Of a stretch of 59,695 nt of DNA, positions 11,846 through 42,566 are shown one piece after another. The stretch covers positions 1 to 59,695 of the forward strand of contig JAGWDQ010000070.1 in assembly GCA_018260615.1 (NCBI GenBank), written 5' to 3'. The stretch's first letter is position 1, and every line of letters starts with the position of its first letter. Origin of the DNA: Candidatus Altarchaeum sp. GTDB taxonomy: Archaea > Altiarchaeota > Altiarchaeia > Altiarchaeales > Altiarchaeaceae. The notes beneath the pieces were generated by a model that was not told the DNA's origin, made no database searches, and saw only the letters and a list, made by a program, of their open reading frames with translations. The position numbers and the translations under genes were made by a program.

Positions 11846-11856
11846 AAAAGGATACA

Positions 11857-13229: not shown

Positions 13230-13294
13230 TATATTCGGCGACCCCTCGGCAGACTCTCGCTCCACTTCGTTCCGCTCGGTGCTATCGCACTCCG

Positions 13295-13373
13295 ATAACA
13301 ACGGATATGAGGAAAAATCTAACGATTTTTCCCAAATTGCCTACGGCAACTTCTCATATCCGCATTCCGTTAT
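13295..13373 (+). other. attC-like imperfect palindrome A (79 nt)
   Basis: ATAAC-N3-GGATATGAG ... CAAATT..GGCAACTTC-CTCATATCC-N7-GTTAT. It starts 66 nt after the stop of 12327..13229. Confidence 0.45.
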
Positions 13374-14303: not shown

Positions 14304-14575
14304 TTTTGCAGTATAACCTTGCAGTATAACTCTTAACTTTATAAAATTTTTTTTGTAACTATTCAGATGCGGTCCGACAATTCAAAATAATTTTAAAAAT
14401 ATTGTAACTACTCACCCTCCCAAAAAATTACAGGTAAATTTTTTGATTTTTCGTATTTTTTTGAAAGTTTTACAGGTAAATTTTGTTAACCTGTGAGTAG
14501 TTACAAAATATTAATAAAAAAAATACAAAAAACTGCGGATAAATTTTGTACCTTCCGAATAGTTACATTTACTTT

Positions 14576-28394: not shown

Positions 28395-29141
28395 TTAAAT
28401 TTTTTCCCTGCCTTTTTTTGATGTCACAACATAAACCTCGGCCTTATCCAAATATTCCTTTGCGATTTTTCCCAAATTGAGCATCTTTTCATAGGAATAT
28501 GGAGCAATATTTTGAAATTTCTCATCAAGCGTTCTTTCCGCCCTGAATTCGTTCAAAGTGTAAATGGAAAATTTATATTTATTTGCTATTTTTGCTATTT
28601 CAATGATTTCGCTTTCATCTGTCAGCGTCGGCACGACCGTTGTTCTCGCCTCTTTTTTTCCGTCCCATTCCGCTAAAATTTCACATGTTCGCCTAACTCT
28701 TTCAACAACATTTTTCCAGTCGTCTCTTCCTACGGCACTTCCATATTTTTCAGTAAATGGTGCTTTTATATCAAGACCAATGAAATCAAGCAGAGGTAAA
28801 AATTTTTGCAGTGTTTCAGGATAAAACCCGTTATGGTCAATTTTCAGCAGTAAATTTGTCTCGTTCTTTATTCGCAGGCATAATTCAAAGGTCTCATTTT
28901 GCATCAATGGTTCCCCTCCTGTAATAGTAACCGCATCTATAATAAAATTTTCCTTTAAATTTTTTATTATTTCGGAAATTTCCATCTCTCTGCAAACTTC
29001 GGGATTCGCAAGTGCAACATCTGCATTCTGGCACCATGGACACCTGTATGGGCATCCGCAAAGATAGATTACCGCACAGACATGCCCCGGAAAATCAACA
29101 GAGGAGTAGTCAACAATTCCCGCAAAATTTATTTTTAACAT
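28395..29141 (-). CDS. Radical SAM activating enzyme (anaerobic RNR activase NrdG-like)
   Basis: Contains VDFPGHVCAVIYLCGCPYRCPWCQN (CxxxCxxC) and TITGGEP. Confidence 0.65.
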   Translation of the reverse strand: MLKINFAGIVDYSSVDFPGHVCAVIYLCGCPYRCPWCQNADVALANPEVCREMEISEIIKNLKENFIIDAVTITGGEPLMQNETFELCLRIKNETNLLLKIDHNGFYPETLQKFLPLLDFIGLDIKAPFTEKYGSAVGRDDWKNVVERVRRTCEILAEWDGKKEARTTVVPTLTDESEIIEIAKIANKYKFSIYTLNEFRAERTLDEKFQNIAPYSYEKMLNLGKIAKEYLDKAEVYVVTSKKGREKI

Positions 29142-29229: not shown

Positions 29230-30615
29230 ATGAATGAATCTTTTAAAAATTGTGATTTGGATTTAAAGAAACTTCCGGTTGATGTCGGTCCTTCGTATGA
29301 AGGTGAAAGAATACGGGGTCCCGATATGTTTTTGGAATTGGGAGGTCCGAAAATAAAATTTAAATTTGAATTAGTAAGGGTTGCCGGAAAAGATGATATT
29401 AAAGATAACGGAAATTTTAGATTAATCGGAAAGGATATTCCGGAATATGAGAGCGGAGAAACCATTCCCTTCGGAATATTCATAGAGGTCTATGGCGAAA
29501 AGGTTGAAGTTGAGTTAGAAGGAATTCTGGAAAGAAAAATTCATGACATTATAAACAATATTCAGGGGATGATGCACCTGAATCAAAGGTATGATATCTG
29601 GTGCCGGATAAGTAAGGCAGACAAAGAAAAAGGACTTAAATTCGAGCATATCGGAATTGTAATCATGTCTTTACTGAAAAAACACTTTCCGTTTATAGAA
29701 AGGGTTCAATGTACAATAATTACTGATGAGGATAGTGTTATGGAGTTCCACAAAAAGGCGGTTGAGGTGTATAATACAAGAGATATGAAAACACGGGGAA
29801 TGAAGGATGAAGATATTGATACATTTTATGGCTGCACGCTTTGTCAGTCATTCGCACCGGGGCATATCTGTATTATTTCTCCTGAAAGAATTTCGTTGTG
29901 TGGGGCAATTTCCTGGCTTGATGCGAGAGCAGCGGCAAAGATTAATCCTGACGGTTCAAATTTCCCAATTCCAAAAGGAGAATGCCTGGATCCTGTAAAG
30001 GGAATATTTACGGGTTCTAATGCCGCAATTCAAAAGTATTCAAACAATAAGATACAGCAGGTTGCATTATATACTATATTTGAGAGTGTTCATACGAGTT
30101 GCGGATGTTTTGAATCAATTGGTTTTTACATTCCCGAGGTTGACGGAGTAGGAGTGGTTGACAGAAATTTTAACGGCTTGTCTGCTAACGGAATGAAATT
30201 TTCACAACTGGCGGCACAGGCGGGAGGAGGGCAGCAGATAGAGGGCTTTCTGGGAATAGGTATTCAGTGGTTTTATTCCGGAAAATTTATATCGGCGGAC
30301 GGAGGATGGAACAGAATGGTCTGGCTTCCTTCAACATTAAAGGAAAGAATAAAGGATGCTATCCCACCGGAATTATTTGAGAAAATCCCGACTGAAAAAG
30401 ATGTAAAGAACATTGATGAGCTGAAAAATTTTTTAAAGGAAAAAAATCATCCGATAGTAAAGAGATGGGAAGAAGCAGAGAAAGAAGAGGAGGAAGAAAT
30501 AGAAATTCCGGATATATTTCCGGATGTTCCGTTTCCGTCAGTAAGTTATACAAAAATTTCGTTTAAGGATGTCCGAATTGAGGTGGAAAGTGCGGTTGTG
30601 AAGAAGGGATACTAA
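29230..30615 (+). CDS. cdhC: Acetyl-CoA decarbonylase/synthase complex beta subunit (A-cluster acetyl-CoA synthase)
   Basis: Contains GCTLCQSFAPGHICIISPERISLCGAISWLDARAA and HTSCGCFE. Length is 461 aa, with an acidic C-terminal tail. Confidence 0.85.
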   Translation: MNESFKNCDLDLKKLPVDVGPSYEGERIRGPDMFLELGGPKIKFKFELVRVAGKDDIKDNGNFRLIGKDIPEYESGETIPFGIFIEVYGEKVEVELEGILERKIHDIINNIQGMMHLNQRYDIWCRISKADKEKGLKFEHIGIVIMSLLKKHFPFIERVQCTIITDEDSVMEFHKKAVEVYNTRDMKTRGMKDEDIDTFYGCTLCQSFAPGHICIISPERISLCGAISWLDARAAAKINPDGSNFPIPKGECLDPVKGIFTGSNAAIQKYSNNKIQQVALYTIFESVHTSCGCFESIGFYIPEVDGVGVVDRNFNGLSANGMKFSQLAAQAGGGQQIEGFLGIGIQWFYSGKFISADGGWNRMVWLPSTLKERIKDAIPPELFEKIPTEKDVKNIDELKNFLKEKNHPIVKRWEEAEKEEEEEIEIPDIFPDVPFPSVSYTKISFKDVRIEVESAVVKKGY

Positions 30616-30668
30616 ATTTTTATTTTAATTTATTTAAATTTTAATTTATTTTAATTTATTTACAAAAA

Positions 30669-31058
30669 ATGGAATATATATTGTGTTCTTGTGGGAGTGG
30701 TAAACCGTATCAAAAATGCTGTGTGTTCCTGGACGAAATAAGAAAAAAATACAGTTATATCAAACCTGGCGAGAAAGATGATTCAGAATGGTACAACCAG
30801 GGACTGGAATATATGGATGAGAATAAAATAGATAAAGCAGAGAATATGTTCAAAAAATTGATTATGTCTCAGCCGGAACATCATGACGGTTTTTTGGGTT
30901 TGGCAAATGTCTATAAAAAGAAAGGGGAAAGAGAAAAAATGATTTATTTTTATGACCAGGCTATAAAAAGAGCAAAAGAATTTCTAAAAAATGACTCAAT
31001 TGATCCGGAGGCAATAGAAATGATAGAGGATGAAAAAGATGAAGCTATCAAAAATTAA
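30669..31058 (+). CDS. SEC-C motif plus TPR-like protein
   Basis: The N-terminus is CSCGSGKPYQKCC (SEC-C metal-binding motif). The remainder is helical, TPR-like. Confidence 0.55.
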   Translation: MEYILCSCGSGKPYQKCCVFLDEIRKKYSYIKPGEKDDSEWYNQGLEYMDENKIDKAENMFKKLIMSQPEHHDGFLGLANVYKKKGEREKMIYFYDQAIKRAKEFLKNDSIDPEAIEMIEDEKDEAIKN

Positions 31059-31076
31059 ATTTTACCGCCACTTCAT

Positions 31077-31160
31077 ATAACACAACATAAAAGGTTCGTG
31101 CTTATGGCATTCGCACAAATTACGCCTTCGGCGGAACTTCTTTTATCCGCAAACCGTTAT
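31077..31160 (+). other. attC-like imperfect palindrome B (84 nt)
   Basis: ATAAC-N5-ATAAAAGG ... CAAATT..GGCGGAACTTC-CTTTTAT-N9-GTTAT. It starts 19 nt after the stop at 31058. Confidence 0.45.
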
Positions 31161-31175
31161 GTAAAATCGGGGCAA

Positions 31176-31949
31176 ATGACTAAAACAAATAATTGGGAAA
31201 AAACTATGAACTCTAAAAAAGGAATTAAAAATTATAGTAATAGTATCAAAAAATTCAATTGGAATAATATAGAGGACATTTGTGTGTCTCAGCGAGATGA
31301 TTGGACATGTCAGTTGACCGCGTTAAGGATTGTGTTAAGATATTATAATATAGATATCTATGATGAAGAGATTATTTATATTTTGAAGCATGAAAATTTT
31401 AAAGTTTTTGATTTTGGAACATATCTGCCCTTTATTGGCGTTATTGCTCTAAAATTGGGATTTAATATAAGTTATAGAACTCAAATCGCAAATTTATACC
31501 CTGATGAATCTACAATAATCTCATCAGGTGCTACTATTAGAAAGATCATTCTTGAAGATATCAAGAATACATCCGAAGAAGAACCCATAATACAAGGGTA
31601 TTACGCATTTCTGAAAATTTTGGATTTGGATGGAAAGATATATTTACATCAACCGTATTCACCTCCGTCATTCAAAGAGATCAAAAAGGCATTGAAAAAA
31701 GGTCCTGTGATTAGTGTTGTATCTGGAAATGAATATTACAAAATAGATGAAGATTGGGGTCACGCTTTAGTACTGATACCTACCTATGATAATAGATTTA
31801 TAGTATTAGATGATTTCAGGAAAAAAGGATATGAAGAATATCCAAACTGGGAAATGTATCTAAATCACTCAAAAGAGTATGATTGGAGTACTTGGAAAGG
31901 AAGTATGATAGAATTTAGAAAAAGAAACAAAATATATAATCAAAAATAA
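31176..31949 (+). CDS. Papain-like cysteine peptidase (peptidase C39-like domain)
   Basis: Contains QRDDWTCQLTALRIVL (Q..C nucleophile context) and DWGHALVLIP (His). The start is moved to the ATG at 31176, because the GTG-start extension in the track lies over the attC-like element. Confidence 0.5.
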   Translation: MTKTNNWEKTMNSKKGIKNYSNSIKKFNWNNIEDICVSQRDDWTCQLTALRIVLRYYNIDIYDEEIIYILKHENFKVFDFGTYLPFIGVIALKLGFNISYRTQIANLYPDESTIISSGATIRKIILEDIKNTSEEEPIIQGYYAFLKILDLDGKIYLHQPYSPPSFKEIKKALKKGPVISVVSGNEYYKIDEDWGHALVLIPTYDNRFIVLDDFRKKGYEEYPNWEMYLNHSKEYDWSTWKGSMIEFRKRNKIYNQK

Positions 31950-31955
31950 ACTAAA

Positions 31956-33068
31956 ATGGATGAAAATAAAGATAAAGAATTAGGAATGTTACGAAGGTTA
32001 TTAATTTCAAATCACACAATTCTTATTTTAGTATTTATTATTTTGGGCTCAATTGCGGCAGTAGCGGCAGTTTTTTTTGAGGATCAGATGTTGAAAACGC
32101 TTGCTATTAGTATTGCTGTAGCTTTTATAACTGCAACTGTTGTGGACTTTGCTTATAACTATGTTGTTATGAAAGATGTAGAAAGGATGGTTTCGAAACA
32201 TTTGATGTTAAGTAAAGAGGTTCAAGAAGAAATTATGAAAAGAGAAAAAATTGATGCGATTTTAGATTGTTCATTAGAATCAATTATAGGTAGTGATCTA
32301 AAACAAGTAGTAAAAAACGCTGTAATAAATAAGCTACGTGCATATAAAAATTTTGTCAGATTAAATGCATCAATTAATATTTTTTTATCAAATTTTAAAA
32401 ATGCACCAGACAAAATAAAGAATAACTTTTACAAGGTAGAACGTATTACCAAATATCATGAGATACTGAACACAAGAAGGTTAATTTTTATAGCTACTGA
32501 TAATGAGGGAGTATATGCCGAAGAAATCAAGAAAATTGATGATGAAGAAAAGACATATTTTTTTCTTCTTCCATCGTGCTCAAAAGTAGTAGAAGATCTC
32601 AAAGCTGATGTTGATATTTTTAGAATATCAGACGTAAAAGTCGACGGTGTCCAATTGCAAGAGATTAATGAAGTGATTAATGCAAAATCAATAGGTGAAA
32701 ATAAACCAATAATAATTACCAAAATATTTGAAATACCTGATGAAATATTCAAAGAAAAGGAAAATAAATTGGTAACAATAGAATATAATTTACACTCTAT
32801 AATAGGTAAGTGGGAACATATGTTCTTTGAGGATTTTTATAAAGTATATTCTAATATTCAGATATTATTTGATTTTTCAGATACTAATATTGCAAATTGT
32901 GATGTTTATTATTCCTTTGTATCAGCATCTTATCCTAATGTTAAAAAAACAAAGGATGGCAAAAAAATATTGTTATTTGTAGACGATTGGACATTACCTG
33001 TGAATATGGTATGTTTTACTTGGACGTGTGAGAATGAAATCCCTATAGAACTAAACGAATATAAATAA
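31956..33068 (+). CDS. 2-TM membrane protein with a large uncharacterised soluble domain
   Basis: The TM helices are ILILVFIILGSIAAVAAVFF and LAISIAVAFITATVVDFAY. No motif was recognised in the ~280-aa C-terminal domain. Confidence 0.5.
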   Translation: MDENKDKELGMLRRLLISNHTILILVFIILGSIAAVAAVFFEDQMLKTLAISIAVAFITATVVDFAYNYVVMKDVERMVSKHLMLSKEVQEEIMKREKIDAILDCSLESIIGSDLKQVVKNAVINKLRAYKNFVRLNASINIFLSNFKNAPDKIKNNFYKVERITKYHEILNTRRLIFIATDNEGVYAEEIKKIDDEEKTYFFLLPSCSKVVEDLKADVDIFRISDVKVDGVQLQEINEVINAKSIGENKPIIITKIFEIPDEIFKEKENKLVTIEYNLHSIIGKWEHMFFEDFYKVYSNIQILFDFSDTNIANCDVYYSFVSASYPNVKKTKDGKKILLFVDDWTLPVNMVCFTWTCENEIPIELNEYK

Positions 33069-33069
33069 A

Positions 33070-33213
33070 ATGTATAGTAAAATGAAAAAGTGCAATCATG
33101 TGTGGATTATGGGAGATGGTGGTGGAGGAGGACCTGGAAAAACATGGGTCAGAGGAGATGGTATTAGCGGAGGCCCATCAAAAAAGCCTGAAAAAAACGA
33201 AAAAGAAGAGTAA
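33070..33213 (+). CDS. Candidate Gly-rich small ORF (47 aa), alternative frame over the 5' end of the radical SAM ORF
   Basis: The ATG lies 2 nt after the previous stop and gives MYSKMKKCNHVWIMGDGGGGGPGKTWVRGDGISGGPSKKPEKNEKEE. It overlaps the radical SAM gene by at least 56 nt, so at most one reading of 33098-33213 is correct. Confidence 0.2.
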   Translation: MYSKMKKCNHVWIMGDGGGGGPGKTWVRGDGISGGPSKKPEKNEKEE

Positions 33214-34762
33214 AAGAATCATTCTTCTTTCTCCACCATTTCGGAAAATTGAATATGAAAGGTATAGATTAGGGGAAAATTTAGGGATTAGATATCTTGC
33301 TTCTTTTTTAGAGAATATAGGATATGAAGTTGAAGTATTAGATCCTTCTTTATCTCATTTTTCTATTGAGAAAACTGCTAAAATAATCCTAAAAGAAGAT
33401 TATGATCTAATAGGATTCACTATACCAAATGGTGGACTTTTTTCTAATGTGGTTAAGGTTATCAGAATACTTAGAAAGAATGGTTTTAAAGGACATATTA
33501 CACTTGGGGGACATTTTCCTACCTTTGAGCATAAGGAAATATTAAGATATAACAAGAACATAGATAGCATAGTGCAGCATGAAGGAGAAATTACCTTATT
33601 TGAATTGGTAAATAACTTAGATAAAGAAGAAAATTTTAAGAATATTCTTGGATTATCATATCGTAATTCAAAACAGATTTGTATAAATCCACCTCGCCCG
33701 CTTATTAAAAATCTAAATGATTTGCCATTTCCAAAGAGAGATAAAAATTTAAAATATAACCAAAATAATCATTATACAATGGTAACAAGTAGGGGGTGCT
33801 ACGGTAACTGCTCTTTTTGTTCTATAAGAGCATTTTATGATTATGATAAACCATTATGGCGTTATAGAAGCCCTAATAATGTAGTTGATGAAATAAAATA
33901 TCTCATCAATAACTACAATGCAAAAGTTATTTCATTTATGGACGATAATTTTATAGGTCCTGGTAAATTTGGAAAAAAAAGAGCTATTGAAATAGCAAAT
34001 GAAATTATAAATCGTGGCATATCTATCTATTTCGAGATTTCTTGTAGGCCCAATGACATAGATGAACACATTTTAAAAGTTCTCAAAAGAGCAGGACTTC
34101 GTCACGTATCAGTTGGAATAGAATCTGGAAATGAAGATGTTCTAAAGAGATTTAACAAGAAAACTACTGTTTTGCAAAATATAAATGCGATAAAAACTCT
34201 ACGAAAAACAAATCTTAGTTTTACTCCTTATTTTATAATGTTCGATCCGTGGACAACCATAAGTGAACTTAAAGATAATCTAAGATTTCTTTACAATAAC
34301 AATATATGCACATACAGAAGCATAAAAAACGCCATTACGCTTTATAATGGTACACCTTTTTATGAACAATTAAAACATAATAGTGGTAGAGTCAATTGGG
34401 AGTATCAATATAATTTCAAAAACACTGATGTTGCAGAGGTATATTTCATGATAGATTCTTTAAGTGAGTTTAATAAGATTAATCCAATTATTGATATTTT
34501 GATGTATACTCAAGACCTAAATAATAAGGGAATCCGTGAGACATTGAAGAAAATACAAACGGAAACGAATGAGTTTACTTATAACACGACGATGAGAATA
34601 ATTAATTGGGTGACTAACGACAAATCAGAGAATGATCATTTTGCAAAAGATATTCGTGACGATATAAGTTCTTTTACGGACCAAATCAAAAATTTATTAT
34701 TCGCAAAAGGGCTTGAGCAGGTGTTACACGAGTTAGAGTTCAGAAATCATGATAGAAAATAA
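33098..34762 (+). CDS. B12-binding domain radical SAM enzyme
   Basis: Contains IILLSPPF...DLIGFT...TLGGHFPT (cobalamin-binding fold) and TSRGCYGNCSFCSI (CxxxCxxC). The true start may be the ATG at 33158. Confidence 0.75.
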   Translation: MCGLWEMVVEEDLEKHGSEEMVLAEAHQKSLKKTKKKSKRIILLSPPFRKIEYERYRLGENLGIRYLASFLENIGYEVEVLDPSLSHFSIEKTAKIILKEDYDLIGFTIPNGGLFSNVVKVIRILRKNGFKGHITLGGHFPTFEHKEILRYNKNIDSIVQHEGEITLFELVNNLDKEENFKNILGLSYRNSKQICINPPRPLIKNLNDLPFPKRDKNLKYNQNNHYTMVTSRGCYGNCSFCSIRAFYDYDKPLWRYRSPNNVVDEIKYLINNYNAKVISFMDDNFIGPGKFGKKRAIEIANEIINRGISIYFEISCRPNDIDEHILKVLKRAGLRHVSVGIESGNEDVLKRFNKKTTVLQNINAIKTLRKTNLSFTPYFIMFDPWTTISELKDNLRFLYNNNICTYRSIKNAITLYNGTPFYEQLKHNSGRVNWEYQYNFKNTDVAEVYFMIDSLSEFNKINPIIDILMYTQDLNNKGIRETLKKIQTETNEFTYNTTMRIINWVTNDKSENDHFAKDIRDDISSFTDQIKNLLFAKGLEQVLHELEFRNHDRK

Positions 34763-34856
34763 AGGTAAACATAGAATTATTAATAAAAATAGCCCTTTGC
34801 CCCTGACTCTTCTCAACCATTGGGGTTGCTCGCCATCTGCCTGTCGCTCGGGTCAC

Positions 34857-34940
34857 TTAACACGGTGTATACGGTTCGGGATATTTCCTCATCCAAATGC
34901 TCGGCTTCGCCTCGCACTTCGCATACATCGATTCCGTTAT
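34857..34940 (+). other. attC-like imperfect palindrome C (84 nt)
   Basis: (AC)TTAAC-N3-GTGTATAC ... CAAATG..CGCACTTC-GCATACAT-N7-GTTAT. It starts 95 nt after the stop at 34762. Confidence 0.4.
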
Positions 34941-35097
34941 CCAAAAATTTCAAACTTTCTCAAAACGCAAAATTTCAAAACTCTCAATTAACAACTAACG
35001 CAAATGAAACCCACATAATTTACCAAAACTTGCTGGTTTTGTTTGCATTAATAAAATGTATACTTCTAAAACAAATTTAAAAATTTATTTGTAATAT

Positions 35098-36566
35098 ATG
35101 GACAAGGACTTTGTTATTGCCTATCTGAAAAAGAGAAATTACTGGTGAGACAGCGGAAAGATAAACGAAAAAGATGCCGGAATTGAAAGAGGGGCTTATA
35201 TGAATGAAATTGAGGATGTCCTAAAATTAGACCGGATAATTTGCCTGTCGGGAATAAGAAGATGCGGGAAAAGCACCCTGATGTTCCAGTTGATTGACCG
35301 GCTAATAAAGAGCAATATTGAGCCAAAAAGAATTGTCTATGCAAAAGCAGATGACCTGCCTGGAAGGACTGATTCCCTCCATGACATTGTTAATGTTTAT
35401 CATGAAATAACAGGAATAGACCCAAATAAGGCATTTTTCTTTTTTGACGAAATTCATTTTATGGAAAACTGGCACCTGCAGCTAAAATTTTACATTGATG
35501 CGAAATTTAAGGGAAAATTTATAGTTAGCGGTTCATCCAAAACATTACTTTATAAAGACGCTTCGGAAAGTTTAGTCGGAAGAATAAGATTTATAAAGAT
35601 CTTTCCGCTGACATTCGGGGAGTTTGTTAAATTTAGCGACAGCAGCATAAATACAGATACAAATAACTCCGCATCTGCAATATCTGCCGAAAGCATAGAC
35701 GAAATAAAAAATGCTCACACAAAGTCACAGAGTGTATTTCCCCTTTGTGTCTCTGTGTCTCCGTGTGAGGATAATAAAACGAACTTTCCTGTACGATAAA
35801 AAAAATTTATTACGAGCTAATTCCGAAAAAAGAAAAAATTCTTTACCTGTTCGGAGAGTACTTAAAAGTCGGGGGCTTTCCGGAATGGTTTAAAGTCAAA
35901 GATATTATGCAGTGGAGAAAAATACTTGTTGATGATTATCTTTCACTGATTCTTTTTAAAGATATAGTGCACACATTCAAAATAAAAGATCCTGCCCTGC
36001 TGGAAAAATTGGTTAGGGAAACAGCAAAATTTTCAACCCAAAGGTTCAGTTATGTTTCTTTGTCAAACAGAATGGAAGCAAACAGGGAAACGATAAAACT
36101 TTACATTTATTATTTATCTGCATCTATGCTGGTCTTTATTTCAGATGTTTATTCAAAAAACAAGAAAGCAAGAGAAAGGGCGGAAAAGAAAATTTATTTT
36201 TGGGAAGAAGGAATGAGAAGAGCGTTAACACTTGACGAGGATGAAGCGATGAGTGTAGAAAATATTACTGCGTGGCATCTTATTAAAGAGGGATTTTCAA
36301 AAAAGGTATTCTTTGAGTCGTTTTACTGGAAAAACGGATATGAGGTGGATTTTGTGCTTGAGACAGATATATTGCTGCCCGTGGAAGTAAAATACAGGGA
36401 AAAGCCATATGAGATTAAGGGTATGCTGGACTTTGCAGATAAATTTTCCGTCAAAAGAGGAATTGTTGTAACAAAAGACACAATTGACGAAAAGACATTT
36501 GATATTAATGGCAAAAAGGTAAAAATTTTATTCATTCCCGCATGGCTGTTTTTATTAGCCATTTAA
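35098..36566 (+). pseudogene. AAA+ ATPase with DUF4143-like C-terminus (COG1373-type), inactivated
   Basis: It is a paralog of 53286..54643. There is an in-frame TGA at 35146-35148 where the paralog has Trp (YW* versus HWW). A 91-bp MITE at 35711-35801 shifts the frame. The last codons are replaced at a junction with a copy of the purL 3' end. Confidence 0.75.
35711..35801 (+). mobile_element. MITE family A copy 3 (minimal form) inserted in the ATPase gene
   Basis: The flanking coding sequence reads ..IDEIKN on one side and KIYYELIP.. on the other, collinear with the paralog's NEIKKNYYNLIT. The element is flanked by A-runs. Confidence 0.75.
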
Positions 36567-36735
36567 CGGAGTTTTCCATGCATCTCTTAACTCCTTTACC
36601 TCTGTTACAAAAACAAAAATTTCGCTCAAAAATGTAAAAATTGAGGTGGAAAGTGCGGTTGTAAAGAAGGGATACTAAATTTTTATTAAATTTTAATTTA
36701 TTTATTTACATTCATATTTATTTACAAAGTTTGGA
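36549..36735. repeat. Displaced copies of the purL 3' end (36549-36593) and of the cdhC 3' end plus downstream spacer (36605-36735)
   Basis: 36549-36593 matches 39617-39658 with 3 mismatches. GAGGTGGAAAGTGCGGTTGT(A/G)AAGAAGGGATACTAAATTTTTATT matches the region around 30575-30625. Confidence 0.8.
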
Positions 36736-37120
36736 AATTTTTATTTATATTTTGTGAAAATGAAATGAGAGTCCTTAGGAATCAAGTGCCGGACCGGTGG
36801 AAAATACTCGTGCATTCCTTCCATCGTTAATAAAAAGCCTACTCAGGCATCTCTAAAACTTAGAGGCGAGGATGCAGCAAGATGTGAAATGTAAAAAGTG
36901 ATAAAAAGGATAAATACATATAGGAGCAGTGAAAACATAAGCCACATAAAAGGTCCATTAGACAACATAGTTGGAGATACTAAATAATGTTCAGACAATG
37001 GAGAATAGATACAAACCTGGTTAGGATATCACTATAAAATGGAAGGATATGCGAACTAAGTTCGGATATGGACAGGATATATAAAATGGCGCCTGTGAAA
37101 AATAATATAGGAGATAGAAG

Positions 37121-37894
37121 ATGACAAAAAAAATCTTAAAAAATAAGCCGCTTGTAGAGGCTATATTTGAGTTACGGTGGGAACTTCAAGAGCATAATCA
37201 GGGACTGAAGACAGATCCACATTATAGAATAATAGTTGGCAGGATATATGATAAAGTTAGCAATGAATATCCATTTCATGAGCAATTACCCGCGGCAAGT
37301 ATACCTGATCAAATTGCGGGATATGTGGTTCAGCATCGATTTAGGAAAGGCAAAGATCAGTGGCCTCTTATTCAGATAGGTCCCGGAATCATCACTGTCA
37401 ACGATACCGACGGATACCTGTGGGAGGATTTTGAGAAGAGAATCATCAAATCTGTTAATACTCTCTTTGAATCTTATCCTGATTCAAAAAATAATTTAAA
37501 ACTTAGTAGTGTGGTATTACGTTATATTGACGGTATTGCTTTTGATTTTGAAAAAGAAGATATATTCAGTTTTTTAAAAGAACAAATGAAAACAAGTATA
37601 AATTTGTACCCGAAACTATTTGAAGATACAGGAGTAAAAAAGCAACCTTTGGATTTCGACCTGAGAAATTCTTTTGTCTCTACAAAACCCAAAGGAGTAG
37701 TTCATATTAGATTTGTTCGGGGCAAAACAAAAGAGTTGGATGCATTATTACTGGAAACAATAGTTCAATCGACTACTGAATATGTTCCTAAAGGTCAAGA
37801 TGAAATTGTTGATTGGGTAAAAGATGCACATGATTTAACGGATGACTGGTTTTTTAAACTAATACGGGGAAAATTATTAAGGAGATTTGAATAA
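37121..37894 (+). CDS. TIGR04255-like uncharacterised protein
   Basis: The N-terminus KNKPLVEAIFELRWEL resembles that family's signature, from recollection; 257 aa. Confidence 0.45.
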   Translation: MTKKILKNKPLVEAIFELRWELQEHNQGLKTDPHYRIIVGRIYDKVSNEYPFHEQLPAASIPDQIAGYVVQHRFRKGKDQWPLIQIGPGIITVNDTDGYLWEDFEKRIIKSVNTLFESYPDSKNNLKLSSVVLRYIDGIAFDFEKEDIFSFLKEQMKTSINLYPKLFEDTGVKKQPLDFDLRNSFVSTKPKGVVHIRFVRGKTKELDALLLETIVQSTTEYVPKGQDEIVDWVKDAHDLTDDWFFKLIRGKLLRRFE

Positions 37895-38442
37895 TGTTAT
37901 ACGAGATGACTTATCAGAATGTGACGACGGAATTTCATCAATTCCAGGATGTATTTGCGAGTAGTTCAAGGGAAGAAATTAGTGCAAGTGAAATATCGAG
38001 AAGGTTGTTTTTAAATTTTAAAGGGAAACAATTTGAAAAACCTTTGTTTGCTGCTCTAAATCCCTCACAGATATTGCAAATTGATTATTCGTCCTCGATA
38101 TATCACACTCTTGAATTTAAAAGTGAAACAGCACTCACCGAAGAGCCCTTTAAAAAGACAGAGCCGATAAATGTCTTAGAAACAGTATCAGGAATCTGTG
38201 ATAAACTGATTCTGGAAGAAAAAATTTTTAGAGAAATAGATAAGACAAAACTGCTCAGAACTATATCCGAAATACTTAATGAGATTCCTTCTGAACAAAT
38301 GAAAATTCCTGAAGACGAGCTATTTGAAAGAATAAGAGGAGTTTTAGTATTAGAAATTGTATCAGGAACCCTGAACGAATTAACTCCCAAACAGATAAAA
38401 AATTTTGATGAAGCAGTGAAAAGGAGGCATCTTTTTAAATGA
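37894..38442 (+). CDS. Hypothetical protein, translationally coupled on both sides
   Basis: TAATG overlap at 37891-37896 and ATGA overlap at 38439-38442; 182 aa; no motif recognised. Confidence 0.45.
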   Translation: MLYEMTYQNVTTEFHQFQDVFASSSREEISASEISRRLFLNFKGKQFEKPLFAALNPSQILQIDYSSSIYHTLEFKSETALTEEPFKKTEPINVLETVSGICDKLILEEKIFREIDKTKLLRTISEILNEIPSEQMKIPEDELFERIRGVLVLEIVSGTLNELTPKQIKNFDEAVKRRHLFK

Positions 38443-38840
38443 CATACGTGCTAGATACAAATATTATTACAGCAATTTTGAAAGGAAATGAAAAAGTAAA
38501 AAAAATGGCACAAAAATCCAAATTAGAAGGTAAAAAGGTTTTCATAAATGGAATAAGTTATTATGAGATAAAACGTGGTCTTCTGGCAACTAATGCCACT
38601 GCGCAATTAAAGAGATTTGAAATGCTTTGTAGAGAATTTGATTTGGTGCTATTAGATACTCATGATATTTTTGACAGGGCTGCTGAAATCTATGCAGATT
38701 TGCGTCGGAGAGGGGAACTTCTCGAAGATGCAGATATTTTGATAGCTTCCATAGTCATCTTCCGAAATTTTATTCTTGTCTCGAACGATACAGATTTCAA
38801 TAGAATCCATGGACTAAAGATCGAAAACTGGCTAAACTAA
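38439..38840 (+). CDS. vapC: PIN-domain ribonuclease (VapC-like toxin)
   Basis: Contains MTYVLDTNIITAIL (first acidic residue), ..EDADILIAS.. and VSNDTDF. Confidence 0.75.
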   Translation: MTYVLDTNIITAILKGNEKVKKMAQKSKLEGKKVFINGISYYEIKRGLLATNATAQLKRFEMLCREFDLVLLDTHDIFDRAAEIYADLRRRGELLEDADILIASIVIFRNFILVSNDTDFNRIHGLKIENWLN

Positions 38841-38868
38841 TGGAGATATAACATTGGTGCCATTTCAT

Positions 38869-38950
38869 ATAACAAAGCATATATGGCTTTGGTGATGTGC
38901 ACATCCGCCCAAATTCCCCATCAGGAACTTCAGATATGCTCGTCCGTTAT
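38869..38950 (+). other. attC-like imperfect palindrome D (82 nt)
   Basis: ATAAC-N3-GCATATAT ... CAAATT..CAGGAACTTC-AGATATGC-N6-GTTAT. It starts 29 nt after the stop at 38840. Confidence 0.45.
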
Positions 38951-39092
38951 CCTGAAATTCCAAACTTGATCAAAATACAAAATTTCAATATTTATTTATA
39001 TTTATTTACAAAGTTTGGAAATTTTTATTTATATTTTTATTCATAATTTCGGACTGAAACAAAAAAGACCAATTTTTTAATAATTTTGCACC

Positions 39093-39524
39093 ATGGAACT
39101 AACATCAACATATTCAAATACGTTATTGGAAATGATAAGTGTTTTAAATACATTTAGTGTATCTAAATTTGTCTGGAAAAAATACGAAAAATTTGCAATA
39201 CCGAAAATTGAGGATAGTACAATAAAGATCAGAGGAACATTTTATGATTTAAACAATTTAAAACCAAAACAGGCCGAACAGGAATTGCAAACTTTAAATC
39301 AATTTAAACCATTATTATACCAGTTAAAACAACAATTAGAATTAATAGAGGACATGGAATTTTTAAAATTTAAAAATACAGCTTTGGATTTTTTTACCAC
39401 ACTGAAAGAGATAACAGATACGTTAAATGAGATTACAGATATTCATAGTTCTTATAAAAGAGCAATGCCTGTTTTAGCAAAGGACTGGGATAGACCCGAA
39501 GATAATCACTGGGATAATTACTAA
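39093..39524 (+). CDS. Hypothetical protein
   Basis: 143-aa ORF, helical, no motif recognised. Confidence 0.4.
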   Translation: MELTSTYSNTLLEMISVLNTFSVSKFVWKKYEKFAIPKIEDSTIKIRGTFYDLNNLKPKQAEQELQTLNQFKPLLYQLKQQLELIEDMEFLKFKNTALDFFTTLKEITDTLNEITDIHSSYKRAMPVLAKDWDRPEDNHWDNY

Positions 39525-39620
39525 AATGAATTTCACAAAATTTCAATTAACAACTAACGCAAATGAAACCCGCATAATCTACCAAAACTTGCTGGTTTTG
39601 TTTGTATAGAATAAATTTTA

Positions 39621-42566
39621 TTAGCCATTTAACGGAGTTTTCCACGCATCCCTTAATTCATCAATATCCACATTAATTATTTCCTTTTCTTCTTTTCCTT
39701 CATTTCCTTTAACTATAAATTTCCTGTCCTTTCTCACAAATCCGATATTGGCAAAATTTATCCCTTTCATTAAATTTTCAAATTTTGTCTTGTTTTCTTC
39801 TTTAAGAGAAATAACAAATCTGCCCGCACTTTCTGAAAACAAAATTTTCTCGTTGCTTAAATTTCCTTCTTTCGGAACATTTGCCAGATTTATTTCAATT
39901 CCGACATCTCCCGAAAACGCACATTCTGCAAGTGCAACCGCAAGCCCTCCGTCAGAGCAGTCATGACACGATTCGGTTAAATTTTGAGCAATTGCTTTGC
40001 TGACCGTTCTATAAATTTTTTGTGAAATTTTAAAATCTATCTTTGGGACATTTTTCCCGCTCAATCCATGCTCCGCATAAAATTCACCTGCTCCCAATTC
40101 ATCATTTGTCAGTCCGACAACATAAATCAAATCCCCCGCATTTTTGAACTCGGCAGTCATTGATTTACGAACATCGTCAATTTTGCTCATTGCAGTAATT
40201 AACAGCGTAGGAACACCCGAAATTTTAACAACATTTCCCGATAAATCCTTTCCCGTATAGTCAATTGACATGCTGTCTTTTCCCGAAATTAAAGGTGTCT
40301 CATAAGCCAGACAGGCGTCATAAAGTCCTTTACACGCCCTGACAAGTTGTGCCGCCTTAAATTTATCATGAAGCGGAGACGGCCAGCAGAAATTATCAAC
40401 CAATGAAATATCTTCAAATTTTCCCCCGCAGCAAATAATGTTCCTTATTGCTTCATCAACGGCATTTGCAGCCATCCAGTAGGTGTCAATATCACTGAAT
40501 TTCGGGCAAATTCCGCAGCCAATTACAACACCTTCCTTACTATCAAGTATTGGTTTTATTACTGCGCCATCACTCAATCCATCCCTGTTTTTTCCCATAA
40601 TGGGTTTTATTATGCTTCCGCCCTGAACTTCGTGGTCATACTTCCTTATAATACCTTCTTTGCTCGCAATATTAAGCCGGGATAAAATTTTCTTTAAAAT
40701 TTCACTCAAATCCTTAACTTTTATTTCTCTCTCTTTATATCCTTCATTATCCAAATTTCCGTTCCATTCCGCCTTTAACTTCATCTTGGGAACGCCTTTG
40801 TGCAAAAATTTAATATCCATATCTGCAACAACTTCACCTTCATAAAAAGCGACAAATTTTCCGGTGTTTGTAAATTTTCCGACAACCGTTGCTTCAACAT
40901 CGTATTTCTTTGCCACGTCTAAAAATTTTTGCAGGTTTTCCCCGGATAAAACAACACTCATTCTTTCCTGTGATTCACTGACTAAAATTTCCCACGGCTG
41001 CAAACCGGCATATTTTAGCGGAACTTGAGCAAGCTCAATTTCACACCCATCGCTAATTTCAGCAAGTTCGCCTATTGAACTGCTTAAACCGCCCGCTCCG
41101 TTATCGGTAATTGCCCTGTAAAGCAGATGAGCTCTCGCATCAGTTAAAAAGTCAAGCATCTTCTTTTGTGTGATTGGATCACCAATCTGAACTGCTGTTG
41201 CAGGACTTCCTTCATGGAATTCTTCCGATGAAAATGTTGCCCCGTGAATTCCGTCTTTGCCAACCCTTCCGCCAACCATCACTGCATAATCACCGGGAGA
41301 AATTTCTTTAATATGGGTAAATTTATTTTTAATTACAGAAGGCATTATTCCGAGCGTTCCGCAAAAGACCAAGGGCTTGCCAAGAAATCTGTCATCAAAA
41401 ACAATTGCCCCGTTTACAGTCGGAATCCCGCTTTTGTTTCCTCCGTCTTCTATACCTTTGACAACACCTTCAAATATCCGTTTGGGATGCAAAATTTTTG
41501 CAGGTAAATTTTTAGCATAAAATGGATTTGCAAAGCAGAAAACATCTGTATTTGCGATGGGCTTTGCTCCCAATCCGACACCCATAATGTCTCTGTTCAC
41601 TCCAAGAATTCCCGTTAATGCACCGCCATAAGGATCTAATGCAGACGGAGCATTATGGGTTTCAACCTTTATTGCATAATTAAATTTGTTATCGAACTTC
41701 GCAATTCCTGCGTTATCGGAAAATACTGAAATCAGGCATTCATTCCTTCTCGTATTTGTCCTTTTTATTTCTTCTGTTACTTTAAAAATAAAATTTTTAA
41801 ATAACGAATCAATCTTTTCCTCTTTTCCATCTTCATTGTAATAAATTTCAGCGTTAAAAATTTTATGCTTGCAGTGTTCGCTCCATGTCTGTGCAAGACA
41901 TTCAATTTCAACATCAGTCGGATTTCTGTTCTGCTTTTTAAAATAATCCCTTATTGCCTGCATCTCATTTAAATTCAAAGCAAGCACTCTATCTTTGCTG
42001 ATTTTCATTAATTCCTCATCGCCAACATTTAAATTTATTTCCCGAACTTTAATTTTCTCTTTAAGCAATACCTTTGGTGCTTTAATTTCCATCAAATCAA
42101 CTTTTCCGTTTTCAAAAATTTTGCTGTCATTTATTAATTCATTTGAGAGATAGTTTGAAATTTTTAGTGCATTGTCTTTATTTAAATTTCCTATAAAGAA
42201 ATATTGCTTTGAGGTATAGACATCAACATCTCTGTTTATTGCATCTTTAATTGCCTCTTTTGCTGTCTTTCCGACATTATCAGTAACTCCCGGCTTGAAA
42301 GAAACCCAGATTAACTCGGAGAAATTTGTTAGCAAAAGTTCATTGATGGCAAAAATTTGCGTGATTTTGTCAGCGAATACATTTTTAGCAATAAAATTTA
42401 ACTCTTGCTTATCTAAATTTCCATCAATTAAATAGCAGTCAAATATTCTTATATTTTCTATGCTTTTTGATTTTACTTTTAAATCGCTCAAAATTTTATT
42501 TCTTAAATTTTCTCCTTGCATGTCTTTTAAATTTTCCTTAAAGCCGACAAATATGAAATTTTGCAT
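39621..42566 (-). CDS. purL: Phosphoribosylformylglycinamidine synthase PurL with an N-terminal PurS-like extension
   Basis: 981 aa. Contains QTWSEHCKHK, VETHNAPSALDPYGGA, GRVGKDGIHGATFSS and SESQERM. Confidence 0.9.
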   Translation of the reverse strand: MQNFIFVGFKENLKDMQGENLRNKILSDLKVKSKSIENIRIFDCYLIDGNLDKQELNFIAKNVFADKITQIFAINELLLTNFSELIWVSFKPGVTDNVGKTAKEAIKDAINRDVDVYTSKQYFFIGNLNKDNALKISNYLSNELINDSKIFENGKVDLMEIKAPKVLLKEKIKVREINLNVGDEELMKISKDRVLALNLNEMQAIRDYFKKQNRNPTDVEIECLAQTWSEHCKHKIFNAEIYYNEDGKEEKIDSLFKNFIFKVTEEIKRTNTRRNECLISVFSDNAGIAKFDNKFNYAIKVETHNAPSALDPYGGALTGILGVNRDIMGVGLGAKPIANTDVFCFANPFYAKNLPAKILHPKRIFEGVVKGIEDGGNKSGIPTVNGAIVFDDRFLGKPLVFCGTLGIMPSVIKNKFTHIKEISPGDYAVMVGGRVGKDGIHGATFSSEEFHEGSPATAVQIGDPITQKKMLDFLTDARAHLLYRAITDNGAGGLSSSIGELAEISDGCEIELAQVPLKYAGLQPWEILVSESQERMSVVLSGENLQKFLDVAKKYDVEATVVGKFTNTGKFVAFYEGEVVADMDIKFLHKGVPKMKLKAEWNGNLDNEGYKEREIKVKDLSEILKKILSRLNIASKEGIIRKYDHEVQGGSIIKPIMGKNRDGLSDGAVIKPILDSKEGVVIGCGICPKFSDIDTYWMAANAVDEAIRNIICCGGKFEDISLVDNFCWPSPLHDKFKAAQLVRACKGLYDACLAYETPLISGKDSMSIDYTGKDLSGNVVKISGVPTLLITAMSKIDDVRKSMTAEFKNAGDLIYVVGLTNDELGAGEFYAEHGLSGKNVPKIDFKISQKIYRTVSKAIAQNLTESCHDCSDGGLAVALAECAFSGDVGIEINLANVPKEGNLSNEKILFSESAGRFVISLKEENKTKFENLMKGINFANIGFVRKDRKFIVKGNEGKEEKEIINVDIDELRDAWKTPLNG

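Follow-up and report, generated by a model that had tools for sequence, protein, structure and literature searches.

The window, by which we mean the whole 59.7-kb stretch of Candidatus Altarchaeum DNA that was analysed (59,695 nt), contains four attC-like elements, three of them within an island between two core genes and one solitary (Table 1). The 3.7-kb unit of the island encodes a peptidase of weak C39-like character, a protein of 370 aa for which no family match was found ("2TM" in the original prediction), and a B12-binding radical SAM enzyme, and includes a PADLOC match to PDC-M51A (E 1.4e-20). In the 3.9-kb unit, the native intergenic sequence recurs as a copy (34978-35057), an AAA_14/DUF4143 ATPase gene is split in two (35200-35799 and 35907-36566), and the 3′ ends of purL (36550-36593) and cdhC (36595-36703) are present as fragment copies; TIGR04255-family, unknown, and VapC-like PIN genes (37121-38840) close the unit. 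The duplicated flanks make it a mosaic, which suggests that other rearrangement processes acted as well. No element follows the ORF at the right end of the island.

Table 1. Features of the window discussed in the text.
Feature	Position	Strand	Remarks
five co-oriented genes	9454-13229	+	between tRNA-Leu (9330-9414) and the solitary element
attC-like element	13295-13373	+	solitary; 66 nt past stop 13229 of OGG/AlkA-like glycosylase gene
cdhC	29230-30615	+	acetyl-CoA synthase beta subunit; core gene, left of island
first island unit	30618-31076	+	starts right after cdhC stop; AT-rich leader, 129-aa SEC-C/TPR ORF (30669-31058)
attC-like element	31077-31160	+	first in island; 19 nt past stop 31058 (SEC-C/TPR ORF)
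cassette-like unit, 3.7 kb	31161-34856	+	three co-oriented genes
attC-like element	34857-34940	+	second in island; 95 nt past stop 34762 (B12-binding radical SAM gene)
mosaic unit, 3.9 kb	34941-38868	+	attC tail, duplicated flanks, ORFs
attC-like element	38869-38950	+	third in island; 29 nt past stop 38840 (VapC-like PIN gene)
island right end	38951-39620	+	attC tail, 143-aa ORF (39093-39524), native intergenic sequence (39525-39620)
purL	39621-42566	-	core gene, right of island

The 9-kb island is missing from related Altiarchaeales. In related strains, cdhC and purL are separated solely by the native intergenic sequence, and contigs carrying a CdhC of 88% identity showed a cdhC-purL gap of ~100 bp without any element. 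On its right, the inserted block ends no more than 31 nt from the second island element's GTTAT. The solitary element faces a reverse-strand AbiEii/AbiEi-like pair. For two of the five genes preceding it (11327-11845 and 12327-13229), relatives of ~40% identity occur in other phyla; two of these relatives directly follow an element of the same family, and no adjacent element was seen at the third (L089).

The four elements were found to share, in order, TAACA, a covarying arm, GG, CAAAT, ACTTC, the complementary arm, and CCGTTAT, with a mean column identity of 70% in their alignment and compensatory changes in 7 of 17 arm pairs. The pattern TAACN{50,80}CCGTTAT matched five times in the window, compared with 0.6 matches expected, a count that none of 100 shuffles reached; the fifth match, at 7090, is not a family member. 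Two covariance models (R1, and R2, which was built from 60 family members), run with filters off, found exactly these four elements and no others in the window. R1 gave 81 bits for the solitary copy and 86, 85, and 78 bits for the island copies in order, with the next match at 11 bits, while the R2 scores ranged from 58 to 76 bits (75.5 for the solitary copy, 57.8 and 67.2 for the first and third island copies), with the next match at 15 bits. The palindromes are four genuine members of a conserved hairpin site family. Likeness between the window copies extends ~40 nt past GTTAT (85% identity between 34933-34978 and 38943-38988); behind the second island element, this conserved tail gives way to the copied native sequence from between cdhC and purL (repeat families D6 and D2). 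Taken alone, three of the four copies fold weakly, no better than shuffled sequence (z -0.5 to -1.7); the best folder is the solitary copy (bottom strand -21.7 kcal/mol, z -7.5).

The original prediction had given the four coordinates and the + strand exactly as found, and its placement of the elements 19-95 nt past gene stops, its co-varying inner arms, and the absence of a tyrosine recombinase from the window all held. Of its ~45-nt centre, the conserved blocks held; the centre additionally forms two hairpins (see below), and the similarity past GTTAT had been missed. Its reading of the island as part of an integron-like cassette array was supported, with the qualification that the units are unusually large and one is a mosaic.

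The elements belong to a family present in both domains. A strict family pattern with 23 fixed bases, for which by our arithmetic ~1 chance match would be expected in 596 Gb, matched more than 116 genome stretches in that amount of sequence, including 61 archaeal and 55 bacterial records, and R1 counted 196 copies (135 + 61) in the matched stretches. Many of the records are metagenome bins, and single taxonomic assignments may be wrong; among them are an Altiarchaeales contig of 1.39 Mb and a complete Atrimonadaceae chromosome. In the arrays that the family forms, the elements are co-oriented and the ORFs are placed as in cassettes. Neighbouring elements point the same way in 84/85 pairs, at a median spacing of 944 bp (interquartile range 661-1675 bp), and the longest ORF runs with the element direction in 78 of the 82 units examined, 48 of which hold a single ORF. 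This longest ORF starts ~60 nt past one site and stops ~70 nt short of the next. The 3.7- and 3.9-kb window units, with three to five ORFs, lie above the 90th percentile of the family spacing. Toxin-antitoxin and defence genes are frequent among the cargo, and a Desulfotomaculum contig shares a PIN cassette with a Methanomicrobiaceae contig at 93% identity.

Family alignments revealed a conserved structure with a strand bias. Paired cells made up 91.7% of the alignment, compared with 28-51% when the partners were slid, and compensatory changes occurred at 10 of the 11 inner-stem pairs. RNAalifold applied to 60 diverse copies gave a three-way junction of 25 pairs, 13 of them compensatory. The centre of the element is not a free loop but forms two further conserved hairpins; hairpin loops are mostly C-GAA-G or C-GTA-G triloops. 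Two G·T wobbles form on the bottom strand only (57/60 and 59/60 copies), and the gene (mRNA-sense) strand has A·C mismatches at both conserved positions. With DNA parameters, the bottom strand, which lies opposite the genes, was more stable in 127/135 copies, by a mean of 2.7 kcal/mol (p = 3e-23). Strong compensatory covariation in three stems together with this asymmetry points to selection on a folded single strand; a duplex site would need neither. That the DNA folds in vivo is inferred.

A comparison of WOR-3 strains revealed cassette replacement. In L209 and L211, compared with L210, the recombinase (99% identical DNA over the compared stretch) and the second cassette are kept, whereas the first cassette differs, its own site included. 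Similarity stops after ...GAGTTAGGCG and restarts at CCGTTATCTGAA, placing the breaks at the GTTA of the attI-like site and the GTTA of the element; the strains differ by whole units, and the exact cleavage point is inferred. No sign of a transposon-style target duplication was seen at these three loci, which were checked in detail.

At their start, the arrays adjoin a tyrosine recombinase gene and an attI-like site. The 116 stretches contain eight such recombinase genes or gene fragments, and at all six loci with readable geometry the gene lies at the 5′ end of the array. The attI-like region 3′ of the recombinase gene contains palindromes of the TATATCCGAAC...GTTCGGATATA type, followed by AGTTAG or AGTTAT. 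Elements were found downstream of 4/4 recombinase homologues selected on contig size alone; they adjoin the recombinase at only 8 of 80 metagenomic loci, where many contigs are short and some carry other repeat families. Decayed array-adjacent genes were seen at L092, L027, and L112. That this recombinase is the catalyst is inferred.

The array recombinase shares PF13495, PF00589, and the catalytic motifs with IntI (VchIntIA, PDB 2A3V; TIGR02249) and XerA (PDB 5HXY, 4A8E; NF040815), which are its best sequence and fold matches. It passes the archaeal XerA model NF040815 (241-246 bits against a cut-off of 220), is matched by TIGR02249 in two pieces with the IntI domain skipped, and among solved structures scores best with VchIntIA (160 bits) and XerA (157 and 154 bits), compared with 97 bits for XerD. 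It stands as near to integron integrase as to archaeal XerA, and lacks the ~40-55 residues of the IntI-specific insertion. The corresponding linker, ~105 aa in IntI1, measures 56-62 aa in 62 of the 80 metagenomic relatives in which both motifs were found. Unlike IntI and XerA, many array recombinases add a confidently predicted N-terminal domain of ~60 residues, with a predicted strand-strand-helix-strand-strand-helix order and a weak HARP-like signal. In IntI, the additional domain reads the extrahelical attC bases; for a recombinase without that domain, a hairpin-based mechanism is thus proposed by analogy only. No canonical IntI was found in ~0.75 Mb of DNA flanking elements.

Taken together, the window elements are likely attC-type sites of an integron-like gene-cassette system, a reading to which we assign a probability of roughly 0.78; nothing has been tested biochemically, and there is no standard attC model score. 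In the proposed mechanism, the bottom strand would extrude and fold into the three-way junction, with an outer stem, ATAAC(G)/(T)GTTAT, bearing a 3-4 nt bulge on its 5′ side, then an ~11-bp stem of variable sequence and kept pairing, and two inner hairpins connected by the conserved GAAGT...ATTTGGG. A dedicated tyrosine recombinase, kin to integron integrases and archaeal XerA alike, would bind the folded site. Strand exchange at the conserved G|TTA with a second such site, or with the double-stranded attI-like site beside the recombinase gene, would thereby insert, excise, or replace units of "ORF(s) plus site". The three island sites would mark cassette-borne DNA inserted in a cdhC-purL intergenic hotspot that was rearranged afterwards, so that two versions now stand in tandem; the fourth site stands alone. 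Within this reading, the window is probably an integrase-less array resembling a CALIN, a cluster of attC sites that lacks an integrase. No recombinase or attI-like site was found in the window, so the activity of its sites is unproven and can only be inferred.

The strongest rival sees in the elements ordinary attC sites from a classical integron, acted upon by a canonical IntI elsewhere in the genome, with the short recombinases as bystanders. The general layout (AAC...GTT ends, paired inner arms, bottom-strand preference) fits, integrons and CALINs have been reported from 75 archaeal genomes (PMC9668308), and bacterial genomes commonly contain CALINs remote from any intI (PMC4889954). This explanation is nevertheless unlikely: every recombinase found beside the family lacks the IntI insertion, the flanking DNA yielded no canonical IntI, all four short recombinases chosen on contig size have elements downstream, and cassettes were replaced directly beside a short recombinase and its attI-like site. 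Moreover, 0/11 pre-2022 archaeal contig-accession prefixes checked appear in the published archaeal integron tables; one genome is listed there (JAFNKG01), but with a different contig.

A weaker alternative is that the sites are double-stranded, of Xer/dif type, and that the host XerA dimer resolvase moves the modules, as for pdif of Acinetobacter plasmids or Xer-exploiting elements. In its favour, the partner enzyme exceeds the XerA cut-off without an IntI insertion, and the sequence at the 3′ end of the element, GTTATnnnAAAT, may be similar to the XerD arm in the dif consensus. Against it stand the strong compensatory covariation in three stems and the clear strand asymmetry, the lack of any visible ~11-bp inverted arm pair with a 6-8-bp spacer, and the decayed array recombinases, which are unlike an essential housekeeping enzyme. 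pdif modules are known to alternate in orientation, in contrast to the 84/85 co-oriented pairs here. Even less likely is an RNA-level 3′-UTR element (terminator, stabiliser, small RNA) or a dispersed miniature transposon or REP-like repeat after genes, which is suggested by four copies just past stop codons on the gene strand, by their GC content (0.40-0.49 in a 33% GC genome), and by a once-listed candidate RNA of multistem form in consecutive intergenic regions (DUF1874 motif, PMC5737381), but is opposed by the poorer folding and A·C mismatches of the mRNA-sense strand, the absence of any Rfam match (E <= 10) or of a T run after the four window copies, the periodic, co-oriented association with ORFs, recombinase, and cassette swaps, and the breaks at GTTA without sign of a target duplication (L209-L211).

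The closest known systems include integron attC sites and CALINs (among them the archaeal ones reported in 2022). Like these, the elements are imperfect palindromes with ...AAC and GTT... ends, inner arms that stay paired while their sequence changes, and a favoured bottom strand. Also shared are co-oriented arrays whose units mostly hold a single ORF running the same way, an attI-like site beside a recombinase gene, exchange bounded at G|TT, toxin-antitoxin and defence cargo, and occurrence in both domains. Classical attC sites have little in common beyond the R boxes (PMC8946536), whereas the elements here are conserved throughout the site and across phyla; they have a conserved three-way junction where the classical centre is a variable terminal loop, and the bases left unpaired make up a bulge of 3-4 nt between R′ and L′, whereas the extrahelical pattern of classical sites was not found. 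The attC-like architecture and cassette-array reading of the original prediction were supported, with sites far more conserved and structured than classical attC. Its loose R-box fit also held, (R)TATAAC/GTTATA(Y) being one position off RYYYAAC/GTTRRRY, and the terminator or MITE outcome that it named as refuting was not supported. The recombinase and attI, absent from the window, occur beside related arrays with a non-canonical enzyme, which lacks the IntI additional domain and, unlike XerA, is encoded beside cassette arrays and sometimes decayed.

Among the closest known recombinases we also group the subgroup called "integron-like" by Smyshlyaev et al. 2021. Cury et al. 2016 set aside a few recombinases between IntI and Xer, without intI_Cterm and beside attC (PMC4889954); their cases had <3 attC sites and were judged not IntI, whereas the arrays next to the enzyme here have as many as five sites per 8-11 kb, and a cassette swap was found next to it too. 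The DUF1874 motif, which Weinberg et al. 2017 suspected to be attC-like single-stranded DNA, is likewise multistem, has conserved internal-loop nucleotides, and recurs in consecutive intergenic regions; no integrase was seen with it, no Rfam model matches the present elements, and sameness is not established. The dif/pdif systems share a Xer-like recombinase and short sites flanking accessory gene modules, whereas the sites here are 80-nt, structured, and co-oriented, and yielded no duplex site of the ~28-bp, two-arm kind. The elements likely belong to an integron-like system with conserved structured sites and a non-canonical integrase, in Archaea and Bacteria. If this is true, the window holds an integrase-less remnant of a gene-capture system that elsewhere swaps cassettes.

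The four attC-like imperfect palindromes were confirmed where the original prediction had placed them, all on the + strand and each behind the stop of a + strand ORF (see the table). Alignment of the four copies gave a mean column identity of 70%, with the common blocks running, in order, TAACA, a variable arm, GG, CAAAT, ACTTC, the complementary arm and CCGTTAT, and compensatory changes were found at 7/17 predicted pairs. The G+C content of the elements is 40-49%, compared to 33% for the window. The pattern TAACN{50,80}CCGTTAT matched five times in the window against 0.6 expected; the fifth match, at 7090, is unrelated to the family. A covariance model built from the four window copies (R1) scored them at 78-86 bits, with the next match at 11 bits when filters were switched off, and a second model built from 60 family members (R2) scored them at 58-76 bits, with the next match at 15 bits. 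Full-sensitivity searches with the two models revealed no further copies in the window.

Elements, flanking genes and island cargo of the window
Feature	Position	Strand	Remark
attC-like element, solitary	13295-13373	+	starts 66 nt past ORF stop
attC-like element, island 1st	31077-31160	+	starts 19 nt past ORF stop
attC-like element, island 2nd	34857-34940	+	starts 95 nt past ORF stop
attC-like element, island 3rd	38869-38950	+	starts 29 nt past ORF stop
cdhC	29230-30615	+
Island, ~9 kb	30618-39524		between cdhC and purL
purL	39621-42566	-
Island cargo: SEC-C/TPR protein
Island cargo: C39-like peptidase			weak match
Island cargo: 370-aa protein			no family match; '2TM' in the original prediction, label unverified
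Island cargo: B12-binding radical SAM enzyme
Island cargo: AAA_14/DUF4143 ATPase gene	35200-35799 and 35907-36566		split into two ORFs
Island cargo: TIGR04255-family protein
Island cargo: unknown protein
Island cargo: VapC-like PIN
Island cargo: 143-aa ORF

Several neighbouring features were noted in passing. GC-rich stretches of ~60-65 nt lie directly 5′ of two of the four elements (13230-13294 and 34794-34856), the latter resembling sequence that flanks an element copy on a Methanocellales contig (L019 3810-3664; L numbers denote the genome or metagenome loci examined); these stretches could be the remnant of another site and are otherwise unexplained. The solitary element is directly followed by a reverse-strand unit at 13424-14303, an AbiEii-type toxin gene with a small upstream ORF that is possibly an antitoxin, and no second element closes this unit. 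Similarity at 14396-14482 was rejected as an element copy and belongs to a different repeat, at 14396-14510, in which 14-bp terminal inverted repeats, TTGTAACTACTCAC...GTGAGTAGTTACAA, surround two copies of ACAGGTAAATTTT. This repeat is ~80% identical to positions 1520-1593 and 1866-1944 of an Altiarchaeales A3 contig (L049), and might be a lineage-specific miniature transposon.

The fold of the element was examined across the family. In 135 copies, 91.7% of cells were paired, compared with 28-51% when the partners were slid, and 10/11 pairs of the inner stem showed compensatory changes. RNAalifold analysis of 60 diverse copies predicted a three-way junction, with 13/25 pairs compensatory. The consensus of the bottom strand (the strand opposite the genes) begins with ATAAC(G), a 3-4 nt bulge and a variable stem of ~11 bp, which is followed by two hairpins, the first opened by GAAGT and closed by ATTT and the second opened by GGG, and then by the return arm and (T)GTTAT. 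The loop of the first hairpin is C-GAA-G or C-GTA-G in most copies, a motif of the kind known from unusually stable DNA mini-hairpins. Two G·T wobbles are present on the bottom strand in 57/60 and 59/60 copies, where the gene strand has A·C mismatches, and with DNA parameters the bottom strand was the more stable in 127/135 copies, by a mean of 2.7 kcal/mol. G·T and A·C counts in the model-fitted alignment (201 vs 45, mostly at one fixed position) were set aside because they are contaminated by the model's own preference, and the energy comparison and RNAalifold were relied on instead. A bottom-strand bias is a property of integron attC sites (PMC8946536), and its presence here argues against a function in mRNA.

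In species-representative genomes (596 Gb), more than 116 stretches carried a match to a pattern of 23 fixed bases, whereas about one match would be expected by chance according to our own arithmetic. By record titles, 61 of these stretches are archaeal, among them Altiarchaeales, ANME-1, Methanosarcinales, Methanocellales, Bathyarchaeia, Thermoplasmatota, Hadarchaeia, Aenigmarchaeota, Nanoarchaeota, Iainarchaeum and Archaeoglobi, and 55 are bacterial, including WOR-3, TA06, Nitrospirota, Desulfobacteria, Caldiserica, Atribacteria, Spirochaetes, Patescibacteria, Dehalococcoidia and Clostridia. Several matches are on very long contigs or a complete chromosome, indicating that the spread across domains is not a binning artefact. 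R1 detected 196 copies in the matched stretches. For two genes 5′ of the solitary element, relatives with ~40% identity occur in other phyla; these directly follow a family element in Patescibacteria (L076) and Thermoplasmatota (L037); no adjacent element was seen beside a third relative (L089). As a separate observation, 93% identity was seen between PIN-like cassette proteins of a stretch binned as Desulfotomaculum (L112 1604-2259) and one binned as Methanomicrobiaceae (L107 2233-2882), which may reflect either cassette sharing across domains or a binning error. No Rfam family was found on the elements, by gathering score or at E <= 10, in the window and eight array-rich loci. The window's assembly and eleven other element-bearing contig-accession prefixes are absent from a published archaeal integron survey, which relied on the curated attC covariance model (IntegronFinder/HattCI); this does no more than hint that the family escapes the standard pipeline, since bin filtering is another possible cause of the absence.

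The copies are organized as arrays. Neighbouring copies were co-oriented in 84/85 cases, with a median spacing of 944 bp (interquartile range 661-1675 bp), and in 78/82 units the longest ORF was co-oriented with its site, starting ~60 nt past one site and stopping ~70 nt before the next. Single-ORF units account for 48 of the 82. Multi-gene units of ~3 kb also occur, for example a restriction-modification unit in L203, so that the large units of the window are unusual, not unique. The cargo of the family includes methyltransferases, DUF262/GmrSD-like proteins, PIN, membrane proteins and HicAB. A tmRNA or tRNA gene in the same direction was observed just 5′ of the array in three cases (L055 3720-4076, - strand; L012 478-551, + strand; the window 9330-9414, + strand), but insertion at such genes was dropped as a general feature, any tRNA or tmRNA being present in only 4/60 loci.

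Replacement of a cassette was observed in the WOR-3 lineage. Three genomes (L209, L210 and L211) encode the same recombinase protein, are 99% identical in DNA over the compared stretch, and have in common a second cassette consisting of a cupin gene and an element. The first cassette, its own element included, differs: in L209 and L211 it holds a 75-aa ORF together with a DUF5714 gene, whereas in L210 it holds ORFs of 185 and 76 aa. Similarity between the two versions ends just past ...AAACGAGTTAGGCG and restarts at CCGTTATCTGAA; the replacement is bounded by GAGTTAGGCG and CCGTTAT. The cassette-level polymorphism at G|TTA boundaries that the original prediction had named as a check was thus found in this lineage, not in the window. 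The contexts of the recombinase homologue P0174 added one more array and no additional strain polymorphism.

With IntI1 used solely as a query, eight complete or fragmentary recombinase genes were identified among the 116 stretches. In the six loci with readable geometry, the gene is at the 5′ end of the array, co-oriented with it in L058, L094, L027 and L092 and divergent in L101 and L112. The three intact recombinases scored 241-246 bits with NF040815 ('site-specific tyrosine recombinase/integron integrase'), above its cut-off of 220, and 216-237 bits with the integron-integrase model TIGR02249, below its cut-off of 265, in two pieces that skip profile positions ~180-234. The alignment shows a gap of ~40 residues opposite the IntI1-specific domain. 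In comparisons with solved structures, the best match was VchIntIA (160 bits, residues 172-227 skipped), followed by XerA (157 and 154 bits) and XerD (97 bits), and a fold search agreed. Among 80 metagenomic relatives in which both motifs were found, all from one metagenome scan, the linker is 56-62 residues long in 62. Elements were found beside the recombinase in 8/80 of these loci, with five copies directly downstream of it in L128; four close homologues chosen solely for long contigs had downstream, co-oriented elements in 4/4 cases. Directly after co-oriented recombinase genes lies an attI-like region of one or two TATATCCGAAC...GTTCGGATATA-type palindromes followed by AGTTAG or AGTTAT. 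The window itself contains no tyrosine recombinase and no attI-like site; an exact AAAGAGTTAGGCG at 28690-28702, inside a radical SAM gene, was treated as chance.

Many members of this recombinase group have a conserved N-terminal domain of ~60 residues, modelled with pLDDT > 90 and with the order strand-strand-helix-strand-strand-helix (P0150 residues 1-62; also the N-termini of L058, L094 and L092). It gave weak HARP-like Pfam hits. HARP domains bind branched DNA, and the N-terminal domain may help to read the folded site; the idea rests on the weak Pfam hits alone, because a fold search with the whole recombinase model returned only recombinase cores. Members without the domain (L101, L133 and L145) also adjoin elements. 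At other recombinase loci the repeats belong to different families, whose ends are likewise ATAAC...GTTAT or GTAAC...GTTAC. Longer repeats were noted downstream of related recombinases at L132 4040-4192, 5653-5829 and 7994-8159, and at L156 6857-7001, 7508-7652 and 14648-14792, with ends GTCTGATAAC...GTTATCAGAC, and GTAAC...GTTAC nested within CGCTAAC...GTTAGCG; the recombinase clade seems to serve several site families. Two recombinase genes (motifs at ~6832 and ~10813) occur on one metagenomic contig, L118, with elements at 5890-5963 and 9857-9940; the second gene starts ~60 nt past an element, and the first is downstream of another element, its start unmapped. One possibility is that the recombinase gene itself sometimes travels as a cassette. 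A small XRE-type helix-turn-helix gene is located directly 5′ of the recombinase gene in L212-L217, and could regulate it.

In the window, the three co-oriented island sites are separated by 3,696 and 3,928 bp. The window sequence also occurs in NCBI assembly GCA_002841105.1, and close homologues of its CdhC carry the name Altiarchaeales. The distance between cdhC and purL is ~100 bp in three related contigs with 88% identical CdhC, and neither the island nor an element is present in those three; in a fourth relative (L202), the gap holds only an AAA_14/DUF4143 gene that is more decayed than the window's split copy, itself probably a pseudogene. Native intergenic sequence is retained at 39525-39620, and a second, 89% identical copy lies at 34978-35057, directly after the 2nd island element. 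The absence of the island from related strains, together with this surviving sequence and its second copy, indicates that the element-bearing block is an insertion. The right end of the inserted block is ≤31 nt from the GTTAT of the 2nd island element; the empty site starts GGTTAAAATTT, and the cdhC stop codon is within GTTAA. Inside the island, a fragment copy of the purL 3′ end (36550-36593, 93%) abuts a copy of the cdhC 3′ end (36595-36703, 80%), so that two versions of the variable region are arranged in tandem. Repeat pairs with identities of 80-93% were recorded at 30532-30640/36595-36703, 36550-36593/39616-39659, 34978-35057/39537-39616 and 36682-36753/38966-39037, and the island is a tandem mosaic, as if two alleles of a variable intergenic region had been joined.

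The integron is among the closest known systems. The element follows the attC plan, in which R''...AAC and GTT...R' boxes lie outside pairing L''/L' arms and together form an imperfect palindrome. Against the integron R boxes RYYYAAC/GTTRRRY, the family consensus is (G/A)TATAAC and GTTATAC or GTTAGGC, with an invariant AAC/GTT core; ATAAC is one position off RYYYAAC, while the GCCTAAC/GTTAGGC type fits. The bottom-strand preference of integron sites recurs in the family, as judged from energies and fold prediction without biochemical data. Integron arrays, with co-oriented sites and mostly single co-oriented ORFs, are matched by the family, and the window has three co-oriented sites. An attI-like region beside the recombinase, with cassette exchange bounded at G|TT, occurs in related loci only. 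Which strand of attC folds and recombines is set by extrahelical bases, by a central spacer that stays unpaired and by a variable terminal structure, whereas the element has a 3-4 nt bulge, two G·T wobbles and a conserved three-way junction. What defines an integron is an integrase with an extra domain that reads extrahelical bases in folded attC sites, and the gain of this domain is thought to be the key step from Xer-type enzymes to integrons. This domain (intI_Cterm) is missing from the recombinases beside related arrays. By the strict definition the family falls short of an integron on one count, the lack of the IntI additional domain, with two further criteria unresolved, namely the pattern of extrahelical bases and recognition by the curated attC model. 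Smyshlyaev et al. found the insertion not fully conserved in an integron-like subgroup (PMC8138268), and Cury et al. reported a few such recombinases near attC sites, which they judged not to be IntI (PMC4889954).

The CALIN rule (PMC4889954) calls for two or more attC sites on the same strand, with gaps under 4 kb and no intI nearby; the spacing of the island sites and the lack of a recombinase satisfy it, provided that the elements count as attC. An Xer/dif origin would predict a ~28-bp duplex of two inverted ~11-bp arms around a 6-8-bp spacer. No such core is visible in the elements from reading the sequences and consensus, selection in them acts on intrastrand pairing, and palindromes of the general Xer/dif type occur only in the attI-like region beside the recombinase. 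A dispersed MITE- or REP-like repeat, which would be scattered independently of gene spacing, with target-site duplications and without a linked recombinase, is not supported, as the copies are periodic, co-oriented and recombinase-linked. A multistem motif recurring in successive intergenic regions (the DUF1874 motif) was described by Weinberg et al. as a candidate for an unusual attC (PMC5737381); in the literature searched, to which access was limited, no prior description of the element family or of its link to the short recombinase was found.

Taken together, the analysis supports the original prediction of an integron-like cassette array without an integrase. The IntI-type recombinase and attI that it proposed to seek on the contig are not in the window; related loci have an attI-like region and a recombinase that is non-canonical. 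The window array is best described as a CALIN-like remnant, although its activity is unproven and the rest of the genome was outside the search. The family as a whole appears to be a new variation on the integron principle, a reading without biochemical evidence and without application of the curated attC model. It follows the same genetic logic, in that a recombinase gene and an attI-like site accompany co-oriented cassettes, each of which ends in a folded site, with swaps at G|TT, but uses a recombinase without the extra domain and sites with a different conserved fold. A bolder reading, which as one joint claim we regard as slightly more likely to fail than to hold, is that of a separate, widespread gene-capture lineage common to anaerobic Bacteria and Archaea. 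Its short XerA/IntI-like integrase would lack the IntI insertion and often carry an N-terminal domain that perhaps reads branched DNA, its sites would be conserved three-way-junction hairpins, and it would have been largely missed by finders that require the IntI domain and the classical attC model; it would represent either a living relative of the integron ancestor or an independent second solution to hairpin-site recombination.

The cassette reading accounts for the strain-variable 9-kb island between two core genes. If confirmed by experiment, it would make the origin of integrons directly testable. If true, integron-detection software would need to be extended, and a large pool of cassettes, including restriction-modification, GmrSD, toxin-antitoxin and beta-lactamase-like genes, would exist in poorly known anaerobic phyla and Archaea. 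Bacteria and Archaea have near-identical sites in common, as well as at least one cassette that is nearly the same, which points to a route of gene flow between the two domains.
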